A stretch of 64,000 bases of DNA from an uncultured Campylobacter sp. (GTDB lineage Bacteria; Campylobacterota; Campylobacteria; Campylobacterales; Campylobacteraceae). The DNA is taken from the NCBI RefSeq assembly GCF_900539505.1, contig NZ_UQCL01000002.1; one strand, given 5' to 3'. The notes under the pieces were generated by a model. It saw only the letters and a program-made list of their open reading frames with translations, was not told where the DNA came from and did not search any database. This document shows positions 2,656 through 48,135 of this stretch, piece after piece (the first letter of the stretch is position 1; each line of letters begins with the position of its first letter). The translations under genes were made by a program, and so were the position numbers.

Positions 2656-3144
2656 ATGCTTAAGGCGGAGATTGTTTATAAATTTGTGCTCATCGTGTTG
2701 CTAGGCTGCGCGCTTTGCATTTTGGGCTTTTCGGGCGCCTACTTTGCGCGCGGCGAATACGACGAGGCGTGGATGAGCCTGCATAAGATCGCGGGATTCG
2801 GTCTGCTTTGCGTCGCGATCTTGCATATGATCACAAGGCGAAAGAAGCTCGTAAAGCTCTGGGGCGAGTTTTTGGACGTGGTTTTGAGCCGCAAAAATCC
2901 CGGTTTTTGTAATATGGATCGCATCATCGGCGTGATCGAGCCTTATAATATCAGAGAGATCGCTGATAAAATGGGCTTTAGTGCGGACGAGCTCGCTAAG
3001 ATTTTGAAATCAAACGGTATCAAGCTTGTAAGCGTAGATCAGAACCTACGCGAGCTTGCGAAGCTCAACGACGAAAAAATTTTCTTCATCTTGGTGCTTT
3101 TGATCGAGGCGAAATTTGGCAAAGCGGGCGAATGCAAGGTCTAA
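2656..3144 (+). CDS. hypothetical small membrane protein with two N-terminal TM helices
   Basis: The ATG at 2656 is preceded by AAGGAG at 2645–2650. The listed ORF start at 2596 is a GTG with no RBS. N-terminus is hydrophobic (VLIVLLGCALCILGF, GFGLLCVAILHMI). No recognisable catalytic motif. Confidence 0.5.
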   Translation: MLKAEIVYKFVLIVLLGCALCILGFSGAYFARGEYDEAWMSLHKIAGFGLLCVAILHMITRRKKLVKLWGEFLDVVLSRKNPGFCNMDRIIGVIEPYNIREIADKMGFSADELAKILKSNGIKLVSVDQNLRELAKLNDEKIFFILVLLIEAKFGKAGECKV

Positions 3145-20817: not shown

Positions 20818-21249
20818 TCACAAGCTCTTTAGCGCCGCAAGTACGTTTTGTGCGTCCTGTTCGGGCTCCTCGATTCGGCTAAAGCGCTTTATCTCCTTGC
20901 CTCCTCGAAAAATCAGGGTTTGGCGGTGGTAAAATTTCTTCCCGTCGCCGGTGGTGAAGGTTTCGAGCCCAAGCGGCGCCTCAAGCTCGAATTTTTCGTC
21001 GTTTATGAACTCAAACGATGCGCCCGTAGCGCGCTTAAACTCGCTCGTGCCCGCCTCGCCCATGCTGCCTACGGCGATAAGCTCAAAGCCGAGGGCTTTT
21101 ATCTGCGCAAACGCGCTCTCGTAGGCCTTGCACTGAAGCGTGCAGCCAGTAAGCCCAGCCGCATCGCGCAACTCTGCGGGCAAAAATTTGCCGCTGTCGC
21201 CCATTTTTGGGTAGGTAAAAACCACGCAATTTTTCGGTAAATTTATCAT
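20818..21249 (-). CDS. thioredoxin-fold peroxiredoxin (Bcp/redoxin-like)
   Basis: VVFTYPKMGDSG…LTGCTLQC resembles the Bcp active-site region FYPKD…PGCTxxxC. Size about 143 aa. Start taken at MINLPKN. Confidence 0.55.
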   Translation of the reverse strand: MINLPKNCVVFTYPKMGDSGKFLPAELRDAAGLTGCTLQCKAYESAFAQIKALGFELIAVGSMGEAGTSEFKRATGASFEFINDEKFELEAPLGLETFTTGDGKKFYHRQTLIFRGGKEIKRFSRIEEPEQDAQNVLAALKSL

Positions 21250-21371: not shown

Positions 21372-22466
21372 TTGGAGTTAAATTTGGATATCGACAGAGC
21401 GTTAGAGGAGCTGGCAAAAAAGCAGCAGCAGTGCAAGATAAAATTTCTAAAACCGCTGATTTTATTGCTATGCATCGCGGTTTTTTCCATCGGCTGGTTT
21501 ATCCACGGCTTGATCCAAAACGAATACTCCTCCGCCGTGCTGATGTCCGCGATGATCCCGATAATTGCGGTAAGCTGCGTATGGGGGATTTTTGATGATT
21601 CCATCGCCAAGTGGGAGTACAATGCCTTTTACAAAGACGCCTTCATCCGCGCCATCATTTCAGATATCGATCCCGCCTTTAGATACGAGCCGCAAAGCGG
21701 CATAGACGAAGAAGAGTTCCGCAAAACAGGCATCTATCCGAACAATGAATTCGTAGCCGAGGATCAGATAGACGGCGTGTATAAAGGGGTGAAATTTAGC
21801 CTAAGCGAGGCGATAAAAATCTATGAAACGCGCGAGTCTATGGAGCTTGTAAGGCTATCTCAAAGGGCTAAAAGCGATCTTTCTGCGGCTTTTTTGCTGT
21901 CGGCGATCGCGCTTTGGAACGCTTGGAGGCTCGGCGAATACGTGCAGGCCTTTAGCGGCTCGGTGTTGGTGTGCGAGTTTTATAAGAAATTTAAGGGGCG
22001 GACCATCATCGCGGATCGCTCGCCAGGCACAAAATTTTTAGGCGATCAGGAGCTGATGGACGATGTGATTTTCGGCGAGGAATTTCGCGTGTTCGCAAGC
22101 GATAAGATCGAGGCGCGGTATCTTTTGACGCCTAGCCTTATGGAGCGTCTCGGGGCTTTGAAGCTTAAGCTTGCACCTAAGATCGCTCTTAGCGCGGCGT
22201 TTATGGACGGAAAATTTTATCTATTTTTAAACGGCGCGAAAAACCGCTTCGAAGCCGCGCTGTTTTCGCCGCGCACTACGCTAAAAGACGCCGAGCGGAT
22301 AAAGGCCGAAGTTTTGCAGCTTCTTGGTATCATTGACGAGCTGCGTTTGAATGAGGAGGTTTTTGGCGGCGCAAGCGAGAGCGGCGAGTCCGCAAATAGC
22401 CCGCCACCCGGCGGCAAAGAGCTGCAGAGATTGCGCGATAAAGGCTTGAGCTCGCGCGATCGCTGA
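21372..22466 (+). CDS. DUF3137-like membrane protein (paralogue of 46975..47949)
   Basis: TTG start. N-terminal charged segment plus TM helix. C-terminal block EFRVFASDKIEARYLLTPSLMERLGALKLK…FYLFL is shared with the second copy (FSVYASDTVAVMYVLTPALMEKILSLKQ…IYIAI). The DUF3137 assignment is from memory of that family's pattern. Confidence 0.4.
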   Translation: MELNLDIDRALEELAKKQQQCKIKFLKPLILLLCIAVFSIGWFIHGLIQNEYSSAVLMSAMIPIIAVSCVWGIFDDSIAKWEYNAFYKDAFIRAIISDIDPAFRYEPQSGIDEEEFRKTGIYPNNEFVAEDQIDGVYKGVKFSLSEAIKIYETRESMELVRLSQRAKSDLSAAFLLSAIALWNAWRLGEYVQAFSGSVLVCEFYKKFKGRTIIADRSPGTKFLGDQELMDDVIFGEEFRVFASDKIEARYLLTPSLMERLGALKLKLAPKIALSAAFMDGKFYLFLNGAKNRFEAALFSPRTTLKDAERIKAEVLQLLGIIDELRLNEEVFGGASESGESANSPPPGGKELQRLRDKGLSSRDR

Positions 22467-28942: not shown

Positions 28943-29746
28943 ATGAAAAAAATTCTACTAAGTATTTTGCTGGGTGCTGGCGCGCTTTGCGCTAATTCCC
29001 TAGCAGATATCAAGCAAGCAGGCGAAATTCGCATAGGCTTGCAAGATTCCCAGCCTCCGTTTAGCTTCGATGATAACGGCACGCTAAAGGGCTTTGAGGT
29101 TGATTTGGCAAATGAGTTAGTCAAAAATCTATTTGGCAATAAAAAGATCAAAATCGACTTTATCGCCGTAGCATCTAAAGATCGCGTTCCTTCACTGGAG
29201 CAAAACAAAGTAGATCTCATCATATCCAAGCTTACCGTCACAAAAGATCGCGTTCAGAAAGTCGATTTTTCTTACCCGTATTATTCAGTGCAAATTGGCG
29301 TGCTAAGCCGCAAGGACGATAATATTTCAAGAATCGATCAGATCGCGCATAAAAAAATTCTAAGCGTTAAGGGCACAACTGCCGAGGAGCACTTCAAAAA
29401 CGCGGGCTATGAGATTGCGACATGTACCGACGCGAATGAGTGCGTCGCTAGGCTAAAGGCTGGCGAGGGCATAGGCTTTGCCGACGATAATACGGTCGTA
29501 CTCGGATACGCTAGAAACGATGCCGCGCTTGATGCAAAAATCATCAACCTTGGCAAGGTAGATTATATCGCCGTCGCCCTATCTAAGGGCAATACCGAGC
29601 TGCTTGATGCGGTCAATAGCAGCCTGGTAAAAATGTATAAAGCGAAATTTTTCCATAAGGCTTTTGACGAGGATATCAAGCCATACTACGGCGGCAAGAT
29701 CGATAAAAAGCACTTCACGCTCGATGAGGTTTATAGCCTGTTTTAG
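28943..29746 (+). CDS. periplasmic solute-binding protein (SBP family 3), copy 4 of 4 (most divergent)
   Basis: Paralogue. Cys pair ATCTDANEC. Motif GEGIGFADDN. Confidence 0.8.
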   Translation: MKKILLSILLGAGALCANSLADIKQAGEIRIGLQDSQPPFSFDDNGTLKGFEVDLANELVKNLFGNKKIKIDFIAVASKDRVPSLEQNKVDLIISKLTVTKDRVQKVDFSYPYYSVQIGVLSRKDDNISRIDQIAHKKILSVKGTTAEEHFKNAGYEIATCTDANECVARLKAGEGIGFADDNTVVLGYARNDAALDAKIINLGKVDYIAVALSKGNTELLDAVNSSLVKMYKAKFFHKAFDEDIKPYYGGKIDKKHFTLDEVYSLF

Positions 29747-29797
29747 GCTTAGACGCATCTAAAATTTTAAGGCGCCCCTTGGCGTCTAAACATACCC

Positions 29798-29829
29798 GCA
29801 GCTGCGATATTTGATCGCAGCTTGCTTTT
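29798..29829 (+). terminator. putative Rho-independent terminator after the solute-binding-protein array
   Basis: Hairpin AGCTGCGAT-ATTTG-ATCGCAGCT followed by TGCTTTTG. Confidence 0.5.
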
Positions 29830-29969
29830 GCCGCCAAGGCTTCGGCGGCAATTTATAATTTAAATTCCGTATTTTTACGGATCCCGGTTGCGATATAAAA
29901 TTTTATGATGTTTTGATATGCGGTTGTGAAAGGGCGCGGCTTATAAAAGATAGTCGGTCGCAAGAAATT

Positions 29970-30926
29970 CTAATCCGAGTAGTAAAATTTTATATCCTTT
30001 TTCAGTTGCGTCGGCAGTATATTAAATTTAGCCCTAAAAATTTTAGAAAAATGCGATAAATTATTGTATCCGACCATTTTAGCGGCTTCGTTTACGCTGA
30101 TTTGATCTAGACTTAATAGCTCTTTTGCAATTCCAAGCCGCTCATTTGTCAGCATCGCATAAACGCTCGTGCCAAAATATGCTTTAAAATCCCTTTTTAG
30201 TGCAAATTCATTCGTGGCACAAAGACGAGCGAGCTCCTTAATGCTAGGTGGGTTTTGCATATTTTCAAGTAATATTTTCTTTGCTTTTTGGACTGTTTTT
30301 ATGTCATTTTCATCAAGACTAAGCGTATTTTCAGGCTCATTAAATTTATAAAAACTTTTATAAAGCATCTCTAAAATTTTACTTTCCATAAAAATTTCGC
30401 GCATTTTGCCGTCGTATATCGCGGCATTTTCGAGCTCTTTGAGGATGATATTTTGCACGGCGCTTGTTTTAAATTTCTTCATGCAAACGGCCTGATCTAA
30501 ATTCAAATTTTTTAAAATTCCCAGCTCATTTGCAAAAGCGGTGCTAAGCGCTATGCATGAGCTTTTATAGTGTTTATTTTCAAGCTCGTGAACGCCACGC
30601 AATTTGCTTTGCATAGTTCCGAGCCAAAACTCACCTTTATTCAAAACGAATTGATCTTTATCCGATCTGAAGCAGATAGGATTTTCGCCCGTATTGAAAA
30701 ATAAAAATGAATAGCGGCTACCTCGCTCGTGGCGATGCAAAAGAAAATCTCTGCAAATTATATCGCTGCTATAATATCCTATCCCTCCGCCCGTATAAAA
30801 AGAGCTAAAGTCGAATTTTATACTTTCGCTTTCAAGCTCGGTTTTGTTATACCCACATTGCTTGGACGGCTCAATGTCGTTAGATATTTTTTGTAAAAAA
30901 TCATCTAAACTTATCTCTTTAATCAT
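29970..30926 (-). CDS. AraC-family transcriptional regulator
   Basis: C-terminal double HTH (KELARLCATNEFALKRDFKAYFGTSVYAMLTNERLGIAKELL…GYNNLSHFSKIFRAKFNILP). Divergent from the TonB receptor gene. Confidence 0.8.
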   Translation of the reverse strand: MIKEISLDDFLQKISNDIEPSKQCGYNKTELESESIKFDFSSFYTGGGIGYYSSDIICRDFLLHRHERGSRYSFLFFNTGENPICFRSDKDQFVLNKGEFWLGTMQSKLRGVHELENKHYKSSCIALSTAFANELGILKNLNLDQAVCMKKFKTSAVQNIILKELENAAIYDGKMREIFMESKILEMLYKSFYKFNEPENTLSLDENDIKTVQKAKKILLENMQNPPSIKELARLCATNEFALKRDFKAYFGTSVYAMLTNERLGIAKELLSLDQISVNEAAKMVGYNNLSHFSKIFRAKFNILPTQLKKDIKFYYSD

Positions 30927-30974
30927 CTTATCCCTTTAGCGTTTAAAAAAATCCCTCTGCCGTTTAGTATTTCT

Positions 30975-30994
30975 TGATAATGCGTATCTTATTA
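30975..30994. promoter_or_regulatory. possible Fur-box-like element in the AraC / TonB-receptor divergent promoter
   Basis: GATAATGCGTATCTTATTAT contains a GATAATG core followed by AT-rich hexamers. Confidence 0.25.
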
Positions 30995-31035
30995 TAGTAA
31001 AATGAGTTTAAATTTTAATAAGAAAAGGGGCGTTT

Positions 31036-39970: not shown

Positions 39971-41311
39971 ATGGATTATGATATCATCGTAATAGGCTTT
40001 GGCAAAGCAGGCAAAACCCTTGCCGCAAAATCCGCCGCACTGGGCAAAAAGGTCGCTCTCATCGAGCGCTCGCCGCAGATGTACGGCGGCACCTGCATCA
40101 ACGTAGGCTGCATCCCGACCAAGCGACTGGTTACCGCGAGCAAGGAAGCTGGCTTCGTAAATTTCAGCGTGCTCGGAGAGTATTTCGTGCTGAGCATGCA
40201 GAAAAAGGACGAGCTCGTAGAGGCGCTGAGGGCGAAAAATTTAGCGATGCTAAAAGGTAACCCGAATATCGACATAATCGACGGCGAGGGCTCATTTACG
40301 AGCGCGAATTCCGTGCGCGTGCTAAGTCCCGATGGACAAACGCGTGAAATTTCAGCAGAAACGATCGTCGTAAATACGGGCTCGAGGGAGGTCGAACCGA
40401 GCTTTGAGGTAAACTCGCAGATCGCTTATAGTAGCGAAGAAATTTTAAATTTAAAGATCCTGCCGAAGCATCTAGTAATCATCGGCGGCGGATTTATCGG
40501 GCTTGAGTTTGCCTCGATGTTTGCGGGATTCGGTTCGAAAGTTAGCGTGCTTATGCGATCGAAATTTATGAAAAACGAGGATGAGGACGTGGCTGCTAGC
40601 GTCAAATCCGCTCTAGAGGCCCAAGGCGTGGAGATTATCGAGGGCTGCGAGTTTTTGAGCTTAAAGGGCGGGGAGCTAAAATTTAACCTCGCGGGCGAGA
40701 GCAAGGCGGTCGCGGCGGACGCGTTTTTATACGCCCTTGGGCGTCGCGCGAATACGAATGATCTAAATTTAGCCGCTGCGGGAGTGCAGACGGACGTATA
40801 CGGCAATATCATCACGAATGAGCATCTGCAAAGCTCCGCTGCGAGCATCTACGCGGCAGGCGACGTGCGCGGCGGCGAGATGTTTACCTACACTAGCCTG
40901 GATGATTTTAGGATCATTTTTAGCGCGCTTTTCGGAGACGGTGCGCGCACTACGAAAAATCGCACGCCGCATGCAAGCGTGCTGTTTACCCGCACGCCGC
41001 TAGCTCGCATCGGCCTTAGCGAGAGGCAGGCAAGAGAGAGTGGGCGCGAGATCAAGGTGCTAAAGCTTTCGATGGCGGCGGTGCCGGGCGCCAAGGTCGT
41101 AGCGCACGACGAGGGAATGATGAAAGCAGTCGTGGACGCAGCTAGCGGCGAAATTTTAGGCGCGGCGCTTCACTGCGTAAACGCGCACGAGATCGTTAAT
41201 GAGTTGGCGATCGCCATGGCGCTGGGCGCGAAGGCGGACTTTTTCAAAAACCAAATTTTTACGCATCCTAGCATTAGCGAGGCGCTAAACGATCTTTTCG
41301 GACAGTTTTGA
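39971..41311 (+). CDS. class I FAD-dependent pyridine nucleotide-disulfide oxidoreductase (glutathione reductase / dihydrolipoamide dehydrogenase-like)
   Basis: FAD-binding DIIVIGFGKAGKTLA. Redox-active disulfide GGTCINVGCIPTK. Second Rossmann fold LVIIGGGFIGLEFASMF. C-terminal dimerisation domain with THPSISE. Confidence 0.75.
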   Translation: MDYDIIVIGFGKAGKTLAAKSAALGKKVALIERSPQMYGGTCINVGCIPTKRLVTASKEAGFVNFSVLGEYFVLSMQKKDELVEALRAKNLAMLKGNPNIDIIDGEGSFTSANSVRVLSPDGQTREISAETIVVNTGSREVEPSFEVNSQIAYSSEEILNLKILPKHLVIIGGGFIGLEFASMFAGFGSKVSVLMRSKFMKNEDEDVAASVKSALEAQGVEIIEGCEFLSLKGGELKFNLAGESKAVAADAFLYALGRRANTNDLNLAAAGVQTDVYGNIITNEHLQSSAASIYAAGDVRGGEMFTYTSLDDFRIIFSALFGDGARTTKNRTPHASVLFTRTPLARIGLSERQARESGREIKVLKLSMAAVPGAKVVAHDEGMMKAVVDAASGEILGAALHCVNAHEIVNELAIAMALGAKADFFKNQIFTHPSISEALNDLFGQF

Positions 41312-41515
41312 GCTTTTAAACCTTTTTGCGTTTAAAGCTTTGATAGCAAGTGGTGCTCGGGGTTGGCGATGCCCGGGCGCCCTAGCGCAAATCGATCGTG
41401 AAATTTAATGCGCCGGAGCGGGTTAAATTTAGACTGGGTTAAATAATGTGAGCCCTTATCGTCCGCTTCTTTCTTGGCTACCAAAAGTTAGCTATAAAAG
41501 AAATGATTGAAATAG

Positions 41516-42073
41516 TTAATTGATAAAATATTCTCGTTTAGGAATAGCAAGATCGCAATCTATTCGGCACTCGGTAAGAGTATGCGGATAAAATTTCTTC
41601 TCGCAGTTTATACAGGCGAAAACGATTTCGTCCGTCGCTTCATTCAACATAACTCTATAATCGCTAGGCGACCATTGCGGGCATTCGCACGCCAAGTCCA
41701 AATCCACGCTAACTACCAAGCTGTCAAATACAATCGAGTTTAATTCCTCGTAGACTAGTCTTAAGCTCTTTTGATCTTTCAGCGCTCTAATTTTATTTAT
41801 CAAGCGGTATTTGTCCGATTTGATAATCTTTGCGCCAAAGAGATCCTTCGCTTTTCCGTCGCCGTAAATCGATAGCTCGGTCGGATAATATTTAAAATTT
41901 AACTTTAACAGCTCGTCCAAGCCGCAGCCGTCGTATTCTTTCATAAGAAATAAAATTTTATTTTCCATAAACCAAGCCGCTATGCTATAGCATACTTGCT
42001 CGGGATTAAAAGGATGTAGATTTAAAATTCTATTTTCTAACGATAAACACAAATTTCTAATTTTGGGCTGCAT
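41516..42073 (-). CDS. hypothetical protein with a Cys-cluster C-terminus
   Basis: 185 aa, low GC. Motif CECPQW…CINCEKKF…TEC…C. No family recognised. Confidence 0.4.
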   Translation of the reverse strand: MQPKIRNLCLSLENRILNLHPFNPEQVCYSIAAWFMENKILFLMKEYDGCGLDELLKLNFKYYPTELSIYGDGKAKDLFGAKIIKSDKYRLINKIRALKDQKSLRLVYEELNSIVFDSLVVSVDLDLACECPQWSPSDYRVMLNEATDEIVFACINCEKKFYPHTLTECRIDCDLAIPKREYFIN

Positions 42074-42180
42074 TATTTCATCCTTTATTTCTACCTATAT
42101 CGACGATCTCGACAAAATTTTAGCCATCTTTTCTTTATACTTAATTTTATATTTATAATTTCACAAATTTAATACCTTTA

Positions 42181-42546
42181 TTAATCCCCAAAGATTAAAT
42201 AGGCTAAATTTCTACTCAAATTTCCATACGCAACTATCCAATATTCTCGTATGATGTTTTTTATTTGCAAGTTATCGTCCAGAAAGTCTGCAAATATTTT
42301 AACCCTATCTTTGTCTACTGTGCCTAGCTCTTCATCCTCTTTCTCAAACGAAGCGACAATTAAATGCGACAGAGCAATCTTGTCTTGGAAATTTAATGTC
42401 TTGTCTTCTAGTAAATTTAGCATTGACGTAATTTTACCGATATCTGCTAATTCTAGCTCCCAATCTTGCTCATTTCCCGTCGAATCTAATCCCAAAAGCT
42501 TATTTAATTTTATCGCGCTTTCTTTTCTTACGAAATAATCGGTCAT
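42181..42546 (-). CDS. hypothetical small acidic protein
   Basis: Start taken at MTDYF (RBS AAAGGATAATAAA). The listed ORF extends to 42630 and then overlaps its neighbour. Acidic, Trp-containing (EYWIVAYGN). Confidence 0.35.
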   Translation of the reverse strand: MTDYFVRKESAIKLNKLLGLDSTGNEQDWELELADIGKITSMLNLLEDKTLNFQDKIALSHLIVASFEKEDEELGTVDKDRVKIFADFLDDNLQIKNIIREYWIVAYGNLSRNLAYLIFGD

Positions 42547-42581
42547 TTTATTATCCTTTATATATGTTTTAACCGCGATAC

Positions 42582-43064
42582 TCAGCCGACCGCGCCATCT
42601 AGCAGCTTTTTGGAATTTTGCAAAACCCATACGAAATTTTCGAGCTCTACGCAGTCTTTTAATTCAAATCCAAAATTTAACAAACCTACCGATAGGGCGT
42701 CGCCATCTTTTATGACATGCGCTATTAGATTGCCTTTATGTTCTATACTCACTTTATTCTCATATCTTGTAAATTTAAAGATATTTTTCGAGCATCTTCC
42801 GTTTCTTTTTGAAAATTTCTCAAACTGCTCCGCAAAATTCGGTCTTTGATTCCCATCTTTTAGCCATAATCCCCCAGCATATAGCGCCCATATAAGCTCG
42901 TAAAAATTGATATTATGCCGAGTCTCGGCAGCAGCAACTAAAAGCTTATTTGTTTCATGGTTGATCTGTATTAAAGGCTCTCTGTCCATATGCCAAATCT
43001 CGGCTACTACTTTTTCTCTATCCGGCACGGAGGCAATTAAAAATTCAAATTCATTTTCTATCAT
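42582..43064 (-). CDS. hypothetical protein
   Basis: 160 aa, low GC, no motif recognised. A 37-codon ORF (about 43095–43208) lies immediately upstream. Confidence 0.4.
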   Translation of the reverse strand: MIENEFEFLIASVPDREKVVAEIWHMDREPLIQINHETNKLLVAAAETRHNINFYELIWALYAGGLWLKDGNQRPNFAEQFEKFSKRNGRCSKNIFKFTRYENKVSIEHKGNLIAHVIKDGDALSVGLLNFGFELKDCVELENFVWVLQNSKKLLDGAVG

Positions 43065-43242
43065 ATCAAAATCCTATTTTTTGTTTTTTACTGCCTAATT
43101 TAATTTGAATGCTCTATCGTTCGAGCCTAAATCATATTTACCCCATTCTTTTATGACATCTTGAGCTATACTTTTTACGCGGAATTCCTGCCCTACTAAA
43201 ATAAGCATCTATTTTCTCCATAATTCTATTAAATCATCATAT

Positions 43243-43476
43243 CTAAATCAAATTTCTATCCATATCAAATATTTTGGGATAGTTTTTATAGTTTATTTCG
43301 ATATAATCGCCCTTTTTAAATTTTTCAGCTTGCGTCGATAAAACCTCTAAAACTATAAATTCAAATCCAAAAAATAGCTCATCCCACCCCTCTTCTCCTT
43401 CTTCAAGATCTGGATCGCAGCATCCTTCAAAATCGTCATAAAATCTGACTTTGTATATTATTTTCATCAAACTCAA
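43243..43476 (-). CDS. hypothetical small acidic protein
   Basis: 77 aa, acidic (DPDLEEGEEGWDELFF). Confidence 0.3.
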   Translation of the reverse strand: MSLMKIIYKVRFYDDFEGCCDPDLEEGEEGWDELFFGFEFIVLEVLSTQAEKFKKGDYIEINYKNYPKIFDMDRNLI

Positions 43477-43813
43477 TGATAAACTCTCTTTTGTTTAGTT
43501 CATATATATTTCTCGCCAAATTTTTCATAATATCGCGTTCGTTGTCCGAAAATCTTAACAAAAAATTCTCGTAAATTTCTCTTCCGCTTAGCATTGTGCT
43601 CCTTTTTGCAGTTTAGCAAAGATTTGTCCGCTTGAGCCTTTTAATCGGCTTCTTGGCTATTGTATTTCGCACTCTCGATCTTTGCAAGCGTTAATTTCGC
43701 TAAAGGATTGATAAACTTAGCGATACAATATTTATTATCGCATGTAATCACGCTTTGGCGCTCATCTACTTTCATTGCGTTGGAGCAATTCGGGCACATT
43801 ACATAGCCTTCGC

Positions 43814-44122
43814 CTAAATCAACGCCAATCGGAAAATTTCTTCTGCCTTTTGCCTTATCTCGCCTTCTTTAAAAAATACGTTAGGAGCCTTTTTAAAATC
43901 TTCATCAAACTCAGAAAATCTACTCGTCATCATATCCAATTCTTTTAATGCCTGCTCTTCCGCTTTATTGGTTGAGCAATATTGCGATTCCAAATCATAC
44001 ATCTTATAAAATTCATCGCAAAACAGCTCTATATCGCACCAATCGGATAGAAGTCCAGCTATTAAATAATACAACTCTTCATTTTGCTGCATATTTCGCC
44101 TCATTTTAAATTTTATCGCCAT
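43814..44122 (-). CDS. hypothetical small acidic protein
   Basis: 102 aa. Overlaps the upstream gene by 17 bp, so the two are probably co-translated. Acidic, Cys-containing (SDWCDIELFCDEFY). Confidence 0.4.
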   Translation of the reverse strand: MAIKFKMRRNMQQNEELYYLIAGLLSDWCDIELFCDEFYKMYDLESQYCSTNKAEEQALKELDMMTSRFSEFDEDFKKAPNVFFKEGEIRQKAEEIFRLALI

Positions 44123-44945
44123 TTTTATTATTTACGTCTTTTAGAATTGCATGCAATAGCTCGTTTTCGGTTGCATTTTTCTCATCTAATATTGATACGC
44201 CCATAGTTGTTGGAGTAATCTTGGATAAAAATAGATTTACAAGCTCTGTTTTTTCATCGATTCCGTATGACAATGTAACGATATCCAATAAATCGTGCCG
44301 CTCTATAAAACTATCAAAGATATCTTCTAATCGCGACGCTTTCTCTGCGTAGAAGAATATCCACTTTACGCCTATAAGAAAATCCGTTGTGATATTACTA
44401 AAGATATCTATCTTATCCATAAAGTGCGATCCGATAAGCAAATATATATCCGAGCCGTTTTTGGACAAAGAGCCAAGCTCGTAAATAGAACCGATATTTT
44501 TGTAATTTATCATTTTATTTCTCGCTCCCTTGTTTTTTATCATCTTTAGCCACTCTTTTTCAAATTTAAAATATCTTTCAAGCTTTTTATTCTTTTCCGC
44601 TTGATTCCACTTTTCTATCTCGGCATAATCTTGCAGCTCGCCTCCGAACTTAGGGCAAACACTCCTATCTTTAACGTCCGAGAAATTATAAAATTTAAAA
44701 CACCCTTTGCAGTGCATAAATTTAGGATAATATTTTATGCTTTTTTCGGAGCGAAATGCGAGATATAAAAAGAAAGCGCACGCCGCAAAGCATAAAATTC
44801 CTATGATGATACGCAGATGCACGCTTTCAAATTTTACCGATGCCATAAAATAGGGTTTTATATCAACTCTCCCCAATAGGGCGGCCGCCAGTCCCCATGC
44901 GAAAAAAGCAAAAAAGCCGATTAATGCAAAAATTCTATTTAGCAT
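44106..44945 (-). CDS. membrane-anchored zinc-ribbon protein with an unknown ~170-aa cytoplasmic domain
   Basis: Two N-terminal TM helices, then AFRSEKSIKYYPKFMHCKGCFKFYNFSDVKDRSVCPKFGGEL (CxxC…CPxxG). The rest has no recognised motif. Confidence 0.45.
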   Translation of the reverse strand: MLNRIFALIGFFAFFAWGLAAALLGRVDIKPYFMASVKFESVHLRIIIGILCFAACAFFLYLAFRSEKSIKYYPKFMHCKGCFKFYNFSDVKDRSVCPKFGGELQDYAEIEKWNQAEKNKKLERYFKFEKEWLKMIKNKGARNKMINYKNIGSIYELGSLSKNGSDIYLLIGSHFMDKIDIFSNITTDFLIGVKWIFFYAEKASRLEDIFDSFIERHDLLDIVTLSYGIDEKTELVNLFLSKITPTTMGVSILDEKNATENELLHAILKDVNNKNGDKI

Positions 44946-44974
44946 TTTTATATTCCTCTATAACAAATCAAATT

Positions 44975-45247
44975 TCATCGCTTTTTAAATTTACGCTTTT
45001 TGGGCTTTGGGGGTTTAACGCCTTGATGAGGAGCGTTTCTTCGCCAGTAGTCGCCGTCATTATACTCCGTAAGCTTTTTGCCGCAGTCCGGGCAAATTTG
45101 ATCCGTATCTTTGACGTCCTCGTATCGGTAAAATTTGCCGCAGTCTGCACACCACATATACTCCGGGTATCTTTTTATGCTCTTTTCAGAGCGGAAGGCG
45201 AAATAAAAGCCGTAAATACCTATTACTATAAACGCGATTGCGGGCAA
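44975..45247 (-). CDS. truncated paralogue of the TM–zinc-ribbon module, with a basic tail (TTG start)
   Basis: AFRSEKSIKRYPEYMWCADCGKFYRYEDVKDTDQICPDCGKKL matches the N-terminal module of 44106..44945. Ends KPPKPKKRKFKKR. Confidence 0.35.
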   Translation of the reverse strand: MPAIAFIVIGIYGFYFAFRSEKSIKRYPEYMWCADCGKFYRYEDVKDTDQICPDCGKKLTEYNDGDYWRRNAPHQGVKPPKPKKRKFKKR

Positions 45248-45484
45248 TATCCATAAACTACCCGCATCATCAAATTTAATATATTTCTCGCCTATTTTTA
45301 CATGTTTATGTACCGTAAAATAAGAAGCACATTGTGCCTGTCAAAAAAGCGGCAATTCTATCTAGCATTTTGCTGCTCCTTTTCGTTATGATCTGCTTCA
45401 TTCATAGCGTTTTGTGCCATACCGTCTGATCCTTAAATTTGGGCTTTATGAGATAAATTTTTATTTTTGATAGTTCGAAATTTC

Positions 45485-46003
45485 TCATATAACAAACCTG
45501 CAATATTGTAAAATCAACGTATAATCTTCGCTATAAAATTTTACCCTATTTTTTCTATTGTAGATACTCATGCTTAGCAGATATTTGGCGAAATTTATAT
45601 AATCCTCCGTATTAGGAAAATAAAATGTAACGCTTTGGTAGAATGTTTTAAAATCCAGCTCAAATTTATACCTGCCCATATCGTCCGCTATGCAGCACTC
45701 CGCTTCGTCTATTTTGATAAATTCCTTTATATCTATACATAATTGAGCGCTATTTTTTGCAAATCGCGCTCCTCCCACCCAATATTCATAAGGGAAAAGC
45801 TCTAGGTATGAGACCCTTTCATTATACGATGATGTTAAAATGTTTTTTGCGAAATAATACATAGCCAAATTCGTAGTAAAACCTAAGACCACAAGCTTTT
45901 TGTCTTCTAGAATTTTAATATCTAATTTATGATACTCATGCCCCATAAGCTCCTCATCGATAGTTAGAGGATCGTCTTTTATATAAATTTTATTCGGTAG
46001 CAC
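45485..46003 (-). CDS. hypothetical protein (GTG start with strong RBS)
   Basis: AAAAGGAGAATAAATCA-GTG. 172 aa, aromatic-rich, no family recognised. A 30-codon ORF at about 46034–46126 is ATGA-coupled to the upstream 86-aa ORF. Confidence 0.4.
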   Translation of the reverse strand: MLPNKIYIKDDPLTIDEELMGHEYHKLDIKILEDKKLVVLGFTTNLAMYYFAKNILTSSYNERVSYLELFPYEYWVGGARFAKNSAQLCIDIKEFIKIDEAECCIADDMGRYKFELDFKTFYQSVTFYFPNTEDYINFAKYLLSMSIYNRKNRVKFYSEDYTLILQYCRFVI

Positions 46004-46122
46004 TGATTTATTCTCCTTTTGCGCACTACGCCGCTATTCATCGAGCGCCATTAAATATGATCCAAATCCCTTTGATTGCGGAGTATAATAACTTCTTCCA
46101 TCTACATTGAAGCTATTTGTGT

Positions 46123-46383
46123 TCATATTTTCTCCAATATAAGTTCCGTCGAGCCCTCTTCAAGCGAATTATACTCATCCAGATGTATATGCGAATGTTT
46201 CGGCGCGGAATCTTGCGCTAAAGTAAGCAAATGCCTGGCAAGAGATATAAGCCCGCTTTTATTTGCCCTTATAGTAACTTCGTTTCCTAGAGTATTGACG
46301 GAGATCGCGAAGTCCTTTTCCCATTGTAGCTGCAGTCCCTTTTCTGCGCAATAGTCTAAGGTTTTTATAACATACTGCCCCAT
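46123..46383 (-). CDS. hypothetical small protein
   Basis: 86 aa. First ORF after the tRNA on the island strand. Confidence 0.3.
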   Translation of the reverse strand: MGQYVIKTLDYCAEKGLQLQWEKDFAISVNTLGNEVTIRANKSGLISLARHLLTLAQDSAPKHSHIHLDEYNSLEEGSTELILEKI

Positions 46384-46572
46384 ATATCGCCGATACTCCT
46401 TTCTAAATTTAATCGGTTGCCGATAGAATTTACCTCATCGATCGGCTAATCGATCTCGTAGTATTTTGGAAAAATTATATCTAAAATAAAAATGAAAGAG
46501 GTCGGAATAACTAAATTTAAGATAAGTGTTGTGCGCAAAAATGAAGTGATTGAAACTTAAAAATAGATTAAG

Positions 46573-46648
46573 TGGTGGTCCCGATTGGACTCGAACCAAC
46601 GACTTCCACCATGTCAAGGTGACACTCTACCAACTGAGTTACGGGGCC
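46573..46648 (-). tRNA. tRNA-Val (anticodon GAC), CCA encoded
   Basis: Reverse complement is GGCCCCGTAACTCAGTTGGTAGAGTGTCACCTTGACATGGTGGAAGTCGTTGGTTCGAGTCCAATCGGGACCACCA. D, anticodon and T arms all pair. T-loop TTCGAGT. Anticodon loop TTGACAT. One C·A mismatch in the acceptor stem. Confidence 0.85.
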
Positions 46649-46974: not shown

Positions 46975-47949
46975 TTAAGACGTCCAAATTTTCTCATTCA
47001 GCTTTAGAATTTTTACGATTTGCAGCATCGCGTCTAGATCCGCCTTGATATCCTTTGCGATGCGGGCATTGAGTATCGGCTGATCCAAGCTCGGCTCGAA
47101 ACTATCGGCGCCGCGAGATATCGCGATATAAATTTTATTTTGCTTAAAGCTCAGCGATATATCCGATTTTACGAGCTGTTTAAGAGATAAAATTTTCTCC
47201 ATCAGCGCGGGCGTCAGGACATACATAACCGCCACCGTATCGCTTGCGTAAACCGAGAAATTTGCATTGAAATCCGCATTATCTATCGGGATTTTGCGGT
47301 CGCTCCATAGCCCGCGTGGCAGCCCCGAAGGCGGCAAATCTATGCCTGCGGGTGCTGCCGCGTCCGAGAAAACAAAAACATCGGAGTGGATTTTTTTATT
47401 AAAATTTGCCATGAAAAAGGGTCCTTCGAAAAATGTGGCGTAATTATTTTTAAAAATAAATGAAATTCCCGTACCGATTTCTTTTTCCAGCCTTATATCG
47501 CAAAACATAAAATCTACTCCGCCTGCGTTCGCGCAAACCAGATCATCCGCGCGAAATCTATCAAATCCGTCAAATATCTCGCTTTGCCTTACCTCTTTTT
47601 CCTGAAAAAGCGCGCCCATTTTATACGAAAAGCCCAGACTCTCGATATAAGGCTTGAGATAAAGCTCTTTGTAGCGCATCAAAAACCGCTCGGTTTTGCG
47701 CTCAAAAATCCACTCGTAAAATTCGTCCCTCGTACTGATTATTGCTAAAATAGACATGACCAAAAAAGATAAGCTTTCTATACCAAGATCGAGTTTGGGA
47801 AAATCAAGAAAGATGATTATCAATGCGAGCGCAAGCATCGGACCGAAAACCGCAAACGCTACGAGATAACTTAAAATTTTCCAAAGCTTGCGACTTTTCT
47901 TGAGCCGTTTGCGCTGCTTTTCTAAATCTATGACGGTTTTAATATCCAC
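46975..47949 (-). CDS. DUF3137-like membrane protein (second paralogue)
   Basis: Shares N-terminal architecture and C-terminal block with 21372..22466. Start probably the GTG at 47949 (RBS AGAGG); the listed start is a TTG at 47955. Confidence 0.4.
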   Translation of the reverse strand: MDIKTVIDLEKQRKRLKKSRKLWKILSYLVAFAVFGPMLALALIIIFLDFPKLDLGIESLSFLVMSILAIISTRDEFYEWIFERKTERFLMRYKELYLKPYIESLGFSYKMGALFQEKEVRQSEIFDGFDRFRADDLVCANAGGVDFMFCDIRLEKEIGTGISFIFKNNYATFFEGPFFMANFNKKIHSDVFVFSDAAAPAGIDLPPSGLPRGLWSDRKIPIDNADFNANFSVYASDTVAVMYVLTPALMEKILSLKQLVKSDISLSFKQNKIYIAISRGADSFEPSLDQPILNARIAKDIKADLDAMLQIVKILKLNEKIWTS

Positions 47950-48135
47950 GCCCAACCTCTATTTATTAAATTTAATGGCGCGAACTCGCGGCGCAACATA
48001 AATTTACGCCAGATACGGCGTAATAGGCGCACGTTGTTTAGAGCCGCTAAATTTTATGGCTACTTGCGCGAGCCGCGCGCAGTGAAATTTGCCGCCAAGC
48101 TCAAATTGCAGCATAAATTCCGTGATTAAAAAAAC

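Follow-up and report, generated by a model that had tools for sequence, protein, structure and literature searches.

What is the compact, AT-rich island that separates an oxidoreductase gene from a tRNA-Val gene in an uncultured Campylobacter sp., and what do its small, unfamiliar genes encode? The island (positions 41348-46648, the tRNA included) is part of a 64,000-nt stretch of contig NZ_UQCL01000002.1 (RefSeq assembly GCF_900539505.1), hereafter the window, and a preliminary description of the sequence had taken it for decayed cargo of an integrative element with no product from a recognisable family. We found that the first gene of the island encodes an immunity protein of the Imm32 family, that the array of small genes which it heads occupies the same site in related genomes with a mosaic gene content, that its intact genes are under purifying selection and that other genes carry lesions specific to the window. 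We favour, with moderate confidence, the interpretation of the array as a chromosomal, stand-alone heterogeneous polyimmunity (orphan-immunity) locus, partly decayed in this strain. Heterogeneous polyimmunity loci are clusters of structurally unrelated immunity genes, which may protect against the toxins of non-kin (Zhang, de Souza, Anantharaman, Iyer & Aravind 2012, Biol Direct 7:18; PMC3482391).

An AT-rich array headed by an Imm32 gene

The GC content falls from ~0.55-0.58 at 40600-41400 to 0.30-0.38 across 41800-46400 and is again at least 0.47 beyond 46600. With a GC of 0.359, compared to 0.482 for the rest of the window, positions 41348-46572 are the lowest-GC 5.2-kb stretch of the 64 kb, in agreement with the sharp drop between the oxidoreductase gene and the tRNA reported in the preliminary description. 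The adjoining tRNA was likewise confirmed: the island sits 3' of tRNA-Val(GAC) (46573-46648, minus strand; ARAGORN, and 62 bits against the Rfam tRNA family), the sole tRNA in the window, which anchors the array upstream and shares its strand with the array genes. Nine open reading frames (ORFs) of at least 60 amino acids (aa), namely, 86, 172, 90, 279, 102, 77, 160, 149 and 185 aa, lie on the minus strand together with shorter ones, as previously described. The accompanying statement that every ORF reads in this direction holds for the coding ORFs and fails for mechanical ORFs, which on the plus strand reach 119 aa; it is the minus-strand set that has conserved frames, ribosome-binding sites and a low ratio of nonsynonymous to synonymous substitution rates (dN/dS). 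The array genes are tightly packed, with intergenic gaps of 14-107 nt and Shine-Dalgarno sites, and the soluble proteins that they encode are short, at 86-185 aa, and acidic, with isoelectric points (pI) of 4.3-6.0. Ribosome-binding sites precede the intact genes and are missing upstream of gene fragments. They are all that the gaps of the array have in common, and a repeat finder gave no integron-like intergenic repeats in the array, returning just short repeats of 72-88% identity that are expected in AT-rich DNA. Promoter- and terminator-like sites do not exceed their frequency in shuffled sequence.

The first gene of the array (46123-46383; minus strand, as are all array genes given below) is intact and encodes the 86-aa Imm32-family protein, contrary to the earlier impression that no product could be assigned to a family. 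The match to Pfam PF15566 is highly significant (E = 3.9e-18; 65.6 bits against a cutoff of 27) and covers profile positions 1-53 of 54, and the UniRef entry that corresponds to this ORF (WP_177388847.1, uncultured Campylobacter sp.) is named 'Imm32 family immunity protein'. The gene is preceded by the Shine-Dalgarno sequence AAAGGAG and has a dN/dS of 0.18. Members of the Imm32 family are paired with the toxin domains Ntox7, Ntox12 and Ntox37 (Zhang et al. 2012, PMC3482391). Outside the Campylobacter clade, the closest relatives (50-60% identity) are found in ~50 loci of other gut bacteria, one of which is clearly from Bacteroidales, as judged by its SusC/SusD neighbours. These foreign relatives sit in long co-directional runs of small ORFs, and the Pfam families detected across their loci include RHS repeats, the pretoxin HINT domain (PT-HINT), Imm70, Imm53, Imm40 and transposases of insertion sequences (IS), which is the setting expected of polymorphic-toxin immunity genes.

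Among the loci recovered in our scans (numbered with the prefix L), a large group, L116-L166, carries an identical 86-aa Imm32 homologue (MKKVTLNVPNYSPDTG...) on many contigs with differing flanks (e.g., L134, L156, L166 and L117). The background GC of these contigs is 0.35-0.46, the homologue is often embedded in long co-directional arrays of small genes, and IS fragments and RHS/PT-HINT genes accompany it in some of the loci. Such a distribution looks like that of a polyimmunity array which is mobile or widely shared in other gut bacteria.

Besides Imm32, four units of the array are intact in the window: the genes for the 172-, 160-, 121- and 185-aa proteins. The 172-aa product (45485-46003; dN/dS 0.13) is acidic and soluble, and all its homologues in a word index of 5.8 billion proteins belong to the clade (at least 79% identity); in L103-L114, the gene is swapped for one of 106 aa. 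The gene for the soluble 160-aa protein (42582-43064; dN/dS 0.19) is present in 33 related loci at 91-98% identity, and a full HMMER search against 1.84 billion representative sequences returned only the protein itself, a fragment and one spurious low-complexity repeat protein. The acidic 121-aa protein (42181-42546; pI 4.55) starts at a conserved ATG at 42546; the mechanical ORF runs to 42630, and the proteins of relatives begin with MTDYF after AAAGGA. AlphaFold2 predicts an all-helical structure of six helices for this protein, with a predicted local distance difference test score (pLDDT) of 74.6, and the model had no match with E <1 in a Foldseek search of the PDB, whereas the model of the 172-aa protein is unusable (pLDDT 48). 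The Cys-rich 185-aa protein (41516-42073; dN/dS 0.15) ends in a zinc-ribbon-like CxC...CxxC motif, and its gene is found in 31 related loci and is cleanly missing from others.

The 172-aa and 185-aa proteins have no match in Pfam, NCBIfam, PADLOC or PHROGs; the other window ORFs besides Imm32 gave no significant match in these four libraries either, the zinc-ribbon matches being generic. When the unbroken versions of relatives were scanned in the same way, Imm40, DUF7674 and DUF7683 were the only further significant families. Viral contigs contain no relatives of any of the three ORFs scanned against them, and, Imm32 excepted, no homologues were detected outside the clade for the ORFs searched. 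A 30-aa ORF of uncertain coding status (46034-46126) overlaps the Imm32 stop codon by 4 nt; its relatives are 53-87% identical, and in L084 a 29-aa gene is called at this place.

Conservation, mosaicism and decay in related genomes

For comparison, we used 56 loci from metagenome-assembled genomes of uncultured Campylobacter, collected with the flanking oxidoreductase (93-99% protein identity), and 29 further loci of the same clade from an Imm32 scan of metagenomes. The loci L002 and L046 were ignored because they look like chimeric or unrelated joins. In these two, the oxidoreductase gene or the left part of the array is joined to unrelated DNA, probably through chimeric assembly, and L046 runs on into mutL and mevalonate-pathway genes at a GC of 0.25-0.33.

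The array is present at the same site in nearly all informative related loci, and the variation is gene by gene. In some relatives, the block from the 121-aa to the 179-aa gene is replaced by the genes for a DUF7683 protein and a predicted lipoprotein; in L039, L041 and L042, the array is lengthened by additional families, which in L039 include Imm40 (E = 4e-9), DUF7674 (E = 1e-9) and a weak, sub-threshold match to Imm45; and in L107 an Imm40 gene adjoins Imm32. No papers on DUF7683 or DUF7674 were found in a literature search. The resulting pan-locus comprises ~23 families, among them predicted lipoproteins and membrane proteins, and in an all-against-all hhalign comparison these 23 families proved unrelated to one another, except for two lipoprotein families. 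The preliminary description would have abandoned its idea of an integrative element had the same genes been seen here in all relatives at normal GC; the shared position was largely observed, and the normal GC was not.

The intact orthologues have reading frames that are kept across 16-33 genomes, a dN/dS of 0.10-0.22 and a synonymous divergence (dS) of 0.12-0.21, compared to 0.09 and 0.22, respectively, for the flanking oxidoreductase. The low dN/dS indicates that the intact genes are under purifying selection and are maintained as proteins, and the similarity of the dS of the island to that of the flank indicates that the array has been inherited vertically within the clade. This makes the array an old resident of the clade rather than a newcomer. 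Campylobacter sp. VBCF_05 NA6, the nearest outgroup with a name (Dxr 72% identical), has dxr followed directly by tRNA-Val and then a six-tRNA cluster, with no DUF3137 gene, Imm32, oxidoreductase gene or array at this place; thus, the array is specific to the lineage of the uncultured strains. The synteny of this outgroup is too different for defining an insertion site.

The genes 5' of the array, starting from tRNA-Val, are DUF3137 and dxr. The DUF3137 membrane protein gene (46975-47955, minus strand; Pfam DUF3137, E = 1.7e-35), on the other side of the tRNA, is itself polymorphic, with alleles of ~90% or ~46% identity or with both in tandem, so that the variable zone straddles the tRNA. The window contains a second DUF3137 membrane-protein paralog at 21372-22466. 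There is also a second, shorter AT-rich patch at 29500-31000 (GC ~0.36), with a single 318-aa ORF (29970-30926, minus strand) that is not a DUF3137 paralog. At the tRNA itself, a match to HPnc0260, a Helicobacter antisense RNA of Rfam (46464-46611, plus strand; 65.4 bits against a gathering threshold of 59), was rejected as a separate element because it is driven by tRNA-Val, whose T-arm and acceptor stem, read in antisense, make up the well-aligned part; the remainder of the match is AT-rich and poorly aligned. The match probably represents no independent RNA gene.

About half of the array units are decayed in the window, where three are in pieces, a further one survives as a remnant, and two have fused. 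These lesions were read from DNA alignments with relatives and are window-specific. They are not sequencing errors, since assemblies made independently from several samples show the ORFs in the same arrangement. The very short ORFs, previously thought to be translationally coupled to their neighbours, turned out for the most part to be pieces of genes that relatives have in intact form. For annotation, this means that the short 'hypothetical' ORFs of the island are in part pseudogene debris, along with one fusion, and not coupled micro-genes.

Two of the affected genes encode a module with transmembrane (TM) segments and a zinc ribbon, which is duplicated in the array, as the preliminary description had correctly noticed (46% identity over 71 aa, E = 2e-18), and which has homologues in this clade only, according to the word-indexed search (at least 73% identity). 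Gene A (44975-45401) encodes 134 aa with two TM segments and a pI of 9.5 in relatives; in the window, it is disrupted by an 11-nt deletion (ATATCTTATAA) compared to L011, L029 and L045, and the 31-aa and 90-aa ORFs are its pieces, the latter with a TTG start and no ribosome-binding site. Gene B forms part of the 279-aa ORF (44106-44945), which is a frameshift fusion: residues 1 to ~141 (44523-44945) represent gene B, and the remainder (44106-44513) is a separate 135-aa acidic gene. In relatives, gene B encodes 143-151 aa (pI 9.3) and overlaps the start of the 135-aa gene (pI 4.6) by ~14 nt; the two ORFs overlap and are separate in L011, L021, L029 and L045, and were fused in the window by a 1-nt deletion that shortened an A8 tract to A7. 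The 135-aa gene retains its own AAGGGAG and ATG start inside the 279-aa ORF, and gene B of the window has additionally lost a zinc-ligand Cys (CPKFGG compared to CPKCGG). The tract, at ~44518-44530, is A7 in all independent assemblies of the strain and A8 in relatives, and changes in its length could switch the 135-aa gene between separate and fused expression.

The same module coincides with a chromosomal rearrangement breakpoint at 44543-44697, inside the 279-aa ORF. In L090, L097 and L102, the half with tRNA-Val and Imm32 joins at 44543 to window position 3141 onward, and in L007 and similar loci (L006, L017, L018, L024, L028, L033 and L053) the oxidoreductase half stops at 44697, beyond which ~5 kb of other genes are followed by window position 1 onward. 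This arrangement suggests recombination between paralogous copies of the TM and zinc-ribbon module, and large chromosomal rearrangements of the lineage appear to use the paralogs as substrates.

Downstream of the fused pair, a gene for a protein with a helical acidic N-terminal domain and a C-terminal zinc ribbon (43641-44122; 169-179 aa in relatives) is broken into ORFs of 102 and 52 aa by a 76-nt deletion between 13-nt direct repeats (AAATTTTTCGATT / AAATTTTCCGATT), as seen against four relatives. A sub-threshold Pfam match of this gene to Colicin_immun (E = 0.009-0.017) was dropped because a 12-sequence profile of the candidate, searched against all PDB sequences, did not recover the colicin D immunity protein (ImmD). 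The next gene (43243-43594; 117 aa and pI 4.5 in relatives) is frameshifted by a 2-nt (AT) deletion compared to L039, L041, L007 and L036, leaving ORFs of 52 and 77 aa, and its intact orthologues have a dN/dS of 0.10. Finally, a 37-aa ORF (43095-43208) matches only the two ends of a 145-aa gene of L039, L042 and others and is the remnant of this gene of 134-145 aa. The locus offers a natural series of intact and broken alleles.

Function and origin of the array

We favour a toxin-immunity array because Imm32 is present in the window and Imm40 in relatives, because the families form a heterogeneous set of small, mostly acidic proteins, and because the foreign Imm32 relatives occur near RHS-repeat and PT-HINT genes. 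The window contains ~11 tandem, co-directional units of small, structurally unrelated genes, which is the organisation that characterises polyimmunity loci. Toxin, RHS, PAAR, haemagglutinin-repeat or secretion-system families were detected neither in the array nor within 10 kb on either side, nor do they occur among the 25 families listed out of the 66 that the large ORFs of the window match in Pfam. Of the functions offered in the preliminary description, a toxin-immunity array is the one that has the evidence on its side; no toxin cassette was found.

Under this interpretation, the array would be an operon-like co-directional run of small unrelated genes directly downstream of tRNA-Val, possibly co-transcribed, in which each product would bind and neutralise one toxin domain delivered by competitors, for example, by RHS or type V, VI or VII polymorphic-toxin systems. 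The acidic soluble members would sequester toxin domains that reach the cytoplasm, leaving the envelope to the lipoprotein and TM members. Since the array comes without a cognate toxin gene, its role would be defence and not self-protection. The array already existed in the ancestor of the uncultured Campylobacter clade; since then, units have been gained, lost and swapped, small deletions have arisen, and unused units would be left to decay.

Several results weigh against the polyimmunity interpretation. Of the ~11 gene units in the window, Imm32 alone has been shown to belong to an immunity family, and for the pan-locus the count is 2-3 of ~23 families: Imm32 and, in relatives, Imm40 are clear, Imm45 and Colicin_immun are sub-threshold, and the other families have no match. 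The remaining units are clade-restricted orphans, so their putative role as immunity proteins is suggested by association with their neighbours. The search identified no cognate or target toxin, structure prediction for the 172-aa and 121-aa proteins gave nothing diagnostic, and the basic TM and zinc-ribbon proteins resemble no described immunity family. Undescribed immunity families could be hidden among the orphans restricted to the clade, and the TM and zinc-ribbon protein could form, with its 135-aa partner, a new two-component module, a prospect that we regard as rather doubtful. Such a module might be a membrane-anchored immunity or sensor pair, or else a small toxin-antitoxin or defence pair.

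The least improbable of the alternatives is the original proposal, in which an integrative element entered at the 3' end of tRNA-Val and left a remnant, with the integrase and attachment (att) sites lost and the ORFs left over as cargo. It concerns the origin of the array and does not strictly exclude an immunity function. The position of the island 3' of a tRNA, its GC of 0.359 as opposed to 0.482, its exclusively accessory-looking genes and the outgroup VBCF_05 NA6, in which tRNA-Val follows dxr with no such array, speak for this scenario. However, the putative att copy at 41348-41370 is at noise level: it shares 15 of 23 bases with the tRNA 3' end, a value equalled by the unrelated site 20965-20987 (plus strand), its exact 8-mer CACCACTT is replaced by other bases in eight relatives, and a private 26-nt insertion adjoins it. 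The copy lies in the spacer between the oxidoreductase gene and the array (41312-41515, no strand assigned), a conserved, fairly GC-rich, non-coding segment of ~200 nt in which no Rfam family was detected. Furthermore, judging by Pfam labels, no integrase or other mobility gene occurs within 10 kb on either side of the island, which the preliminary description had already described as free of mobility genes, and none was seen in the ~85 related loci, with the caveat that Pfam labels were read for one genome only. Variability is not confined to the array side of the tRNA, since the DUF3137 alleles vary and duplicate; the dS of the island resembles that of the flank, which indicates vertical inheritance throughout the clade; and the gene content changes unit by unit rather than en bloc. 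Taken together, these observations make an integrative element an improbable source of the array.

Even less probable, in our estimate, is that the island consists of small two-gene toxin-antitoxin or abortive-infection (anti-phage) modules, in which, for example, the basic TM and zinc-ribbon protein would disrupt membranes as an effector and the acidic 135-aa product of the overlapping gene would restrain it. The overlap in relatives of a gene for a protein of pI 9.3 (143-151 aa) with one for a 135-aa protein of pI 4.6 and the duplication of the TM and zinc-ribbon module are reminiscent of such systems, and defence islands are likewise AT-rich and variable. Yet none of 10 array proteins (intact versions being used where the window copy is broken) matched PADLOC-DB 2.0 at E <=0.1; no nuclease, NTPase, TIR, sirtuin or other effector or sensor domain was detected; the three ORFs scanned have no relatives on viral contigs; and the only classifiable genes are interbacterial immunity genes. 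Moreover, the strain persists in several samples even though its copies of the module are fused, devoid of a zinc ligand or split. The last alternative, non-functional, lineage-specific AT-rich DNA with decaying or spurious ORFs and Imm32 as its sole real gene, would account for the broken half of the units, the restriction of the searched ORFs to the clade and the poor structure prediction for the 172-aa protein, but is very unlikely given that the frames are kept in 16-33 genomes at a dN/dS near that of the housekeeping neighbour and a similar dS, that Shine-Dalgarno motifs precede the intact genes and not the fragments, and that the 121-aa protein is confidently predicted to fold as a helical bundle.

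If the polyimmunity interpretation is correct, an uncultured gut Campylobacter keeps and remodels private defences against the contact-dependent toxins of its neighbours, and the pan-locus holds ~20 candidate new immunity families that are under selection and are missed by current profile libraries.

Comparison with known systems

The array most resembles the heterogeneous polyimmunity loci, with which it shares the co-directional organisation of small unrelated genes, the presence of curated Imm families (Imm32 here, Imm40 in relatives), the lack of an adjoining full-length toxin and a content that varies between close strains. It differs from them in that most of its units are orphans outside the published Imm profiles, in its anchoring to a tRNA that lies immediately upstream, in the chromosome of a Campylobacter, and in that several units contain zinc ribbons, including the two basic TM and zinc-ribbon proteins.

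Another relevant system is rAID-1, the recombinase-associated acquired interbacterial defence clusters of Bacteroidales, which has an XerD-like tyrosine recombinase at the 5' end, repetitive, integron-like intergenic sequences and at least two co-directional downstream genes with a GC of no more than 41% (Ross et al. 2019; bioRxiv 10.1101/471110). These elements carry orphan immunity genes, many without recognisable homology, which are thought to be protective against the toxins of other gut species (bioRxiv 10.1101/471110). The Campylobacter array is similarly co-directional and AT-skewed, but, unlike rAID-1, has no XerD-like recombinase, according to the Pfam labels of the neighbourhood and the ORF maps of relatives, and no integron-like repeats; instead of a mobile element of Bacteroidales, it is a vertically inherited locus in a Campylobacter host.

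The orphan cdiI, rhsI and type VI secretion system (T6SS) immunity islets, such as those of the Vibrio cholerae auxiliary clusters and of Salmonella Typhi (PMC7400221), also consist of toxin-less immunity genes with signs of decay and quick turnover. As a rule, such arrays follow a resident toxin or secretion locus, and they keep C-terminal fragments of toxins, whereas no toxin fragment or secretion gene is found in the array described here or among the Pfam families listed for the window. With tRNA-associated genomic islands, the array has in common the location 3' of a tRNA, the low GC and the accessory content, but it shows no integrase, no significant direct repeat and no block-wise presence or absence, and its divergence equals that of the flanking core gene.

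Orphan-immunity arrays have been experimentally characterised mainly in Bacteroidales and a few Proteobacteria, and no published array of this type in Campylobacter turned up in our literature search. Arrays of this kind are already known, and what is unusual here is the host and the largely unclassified families that the array contains.

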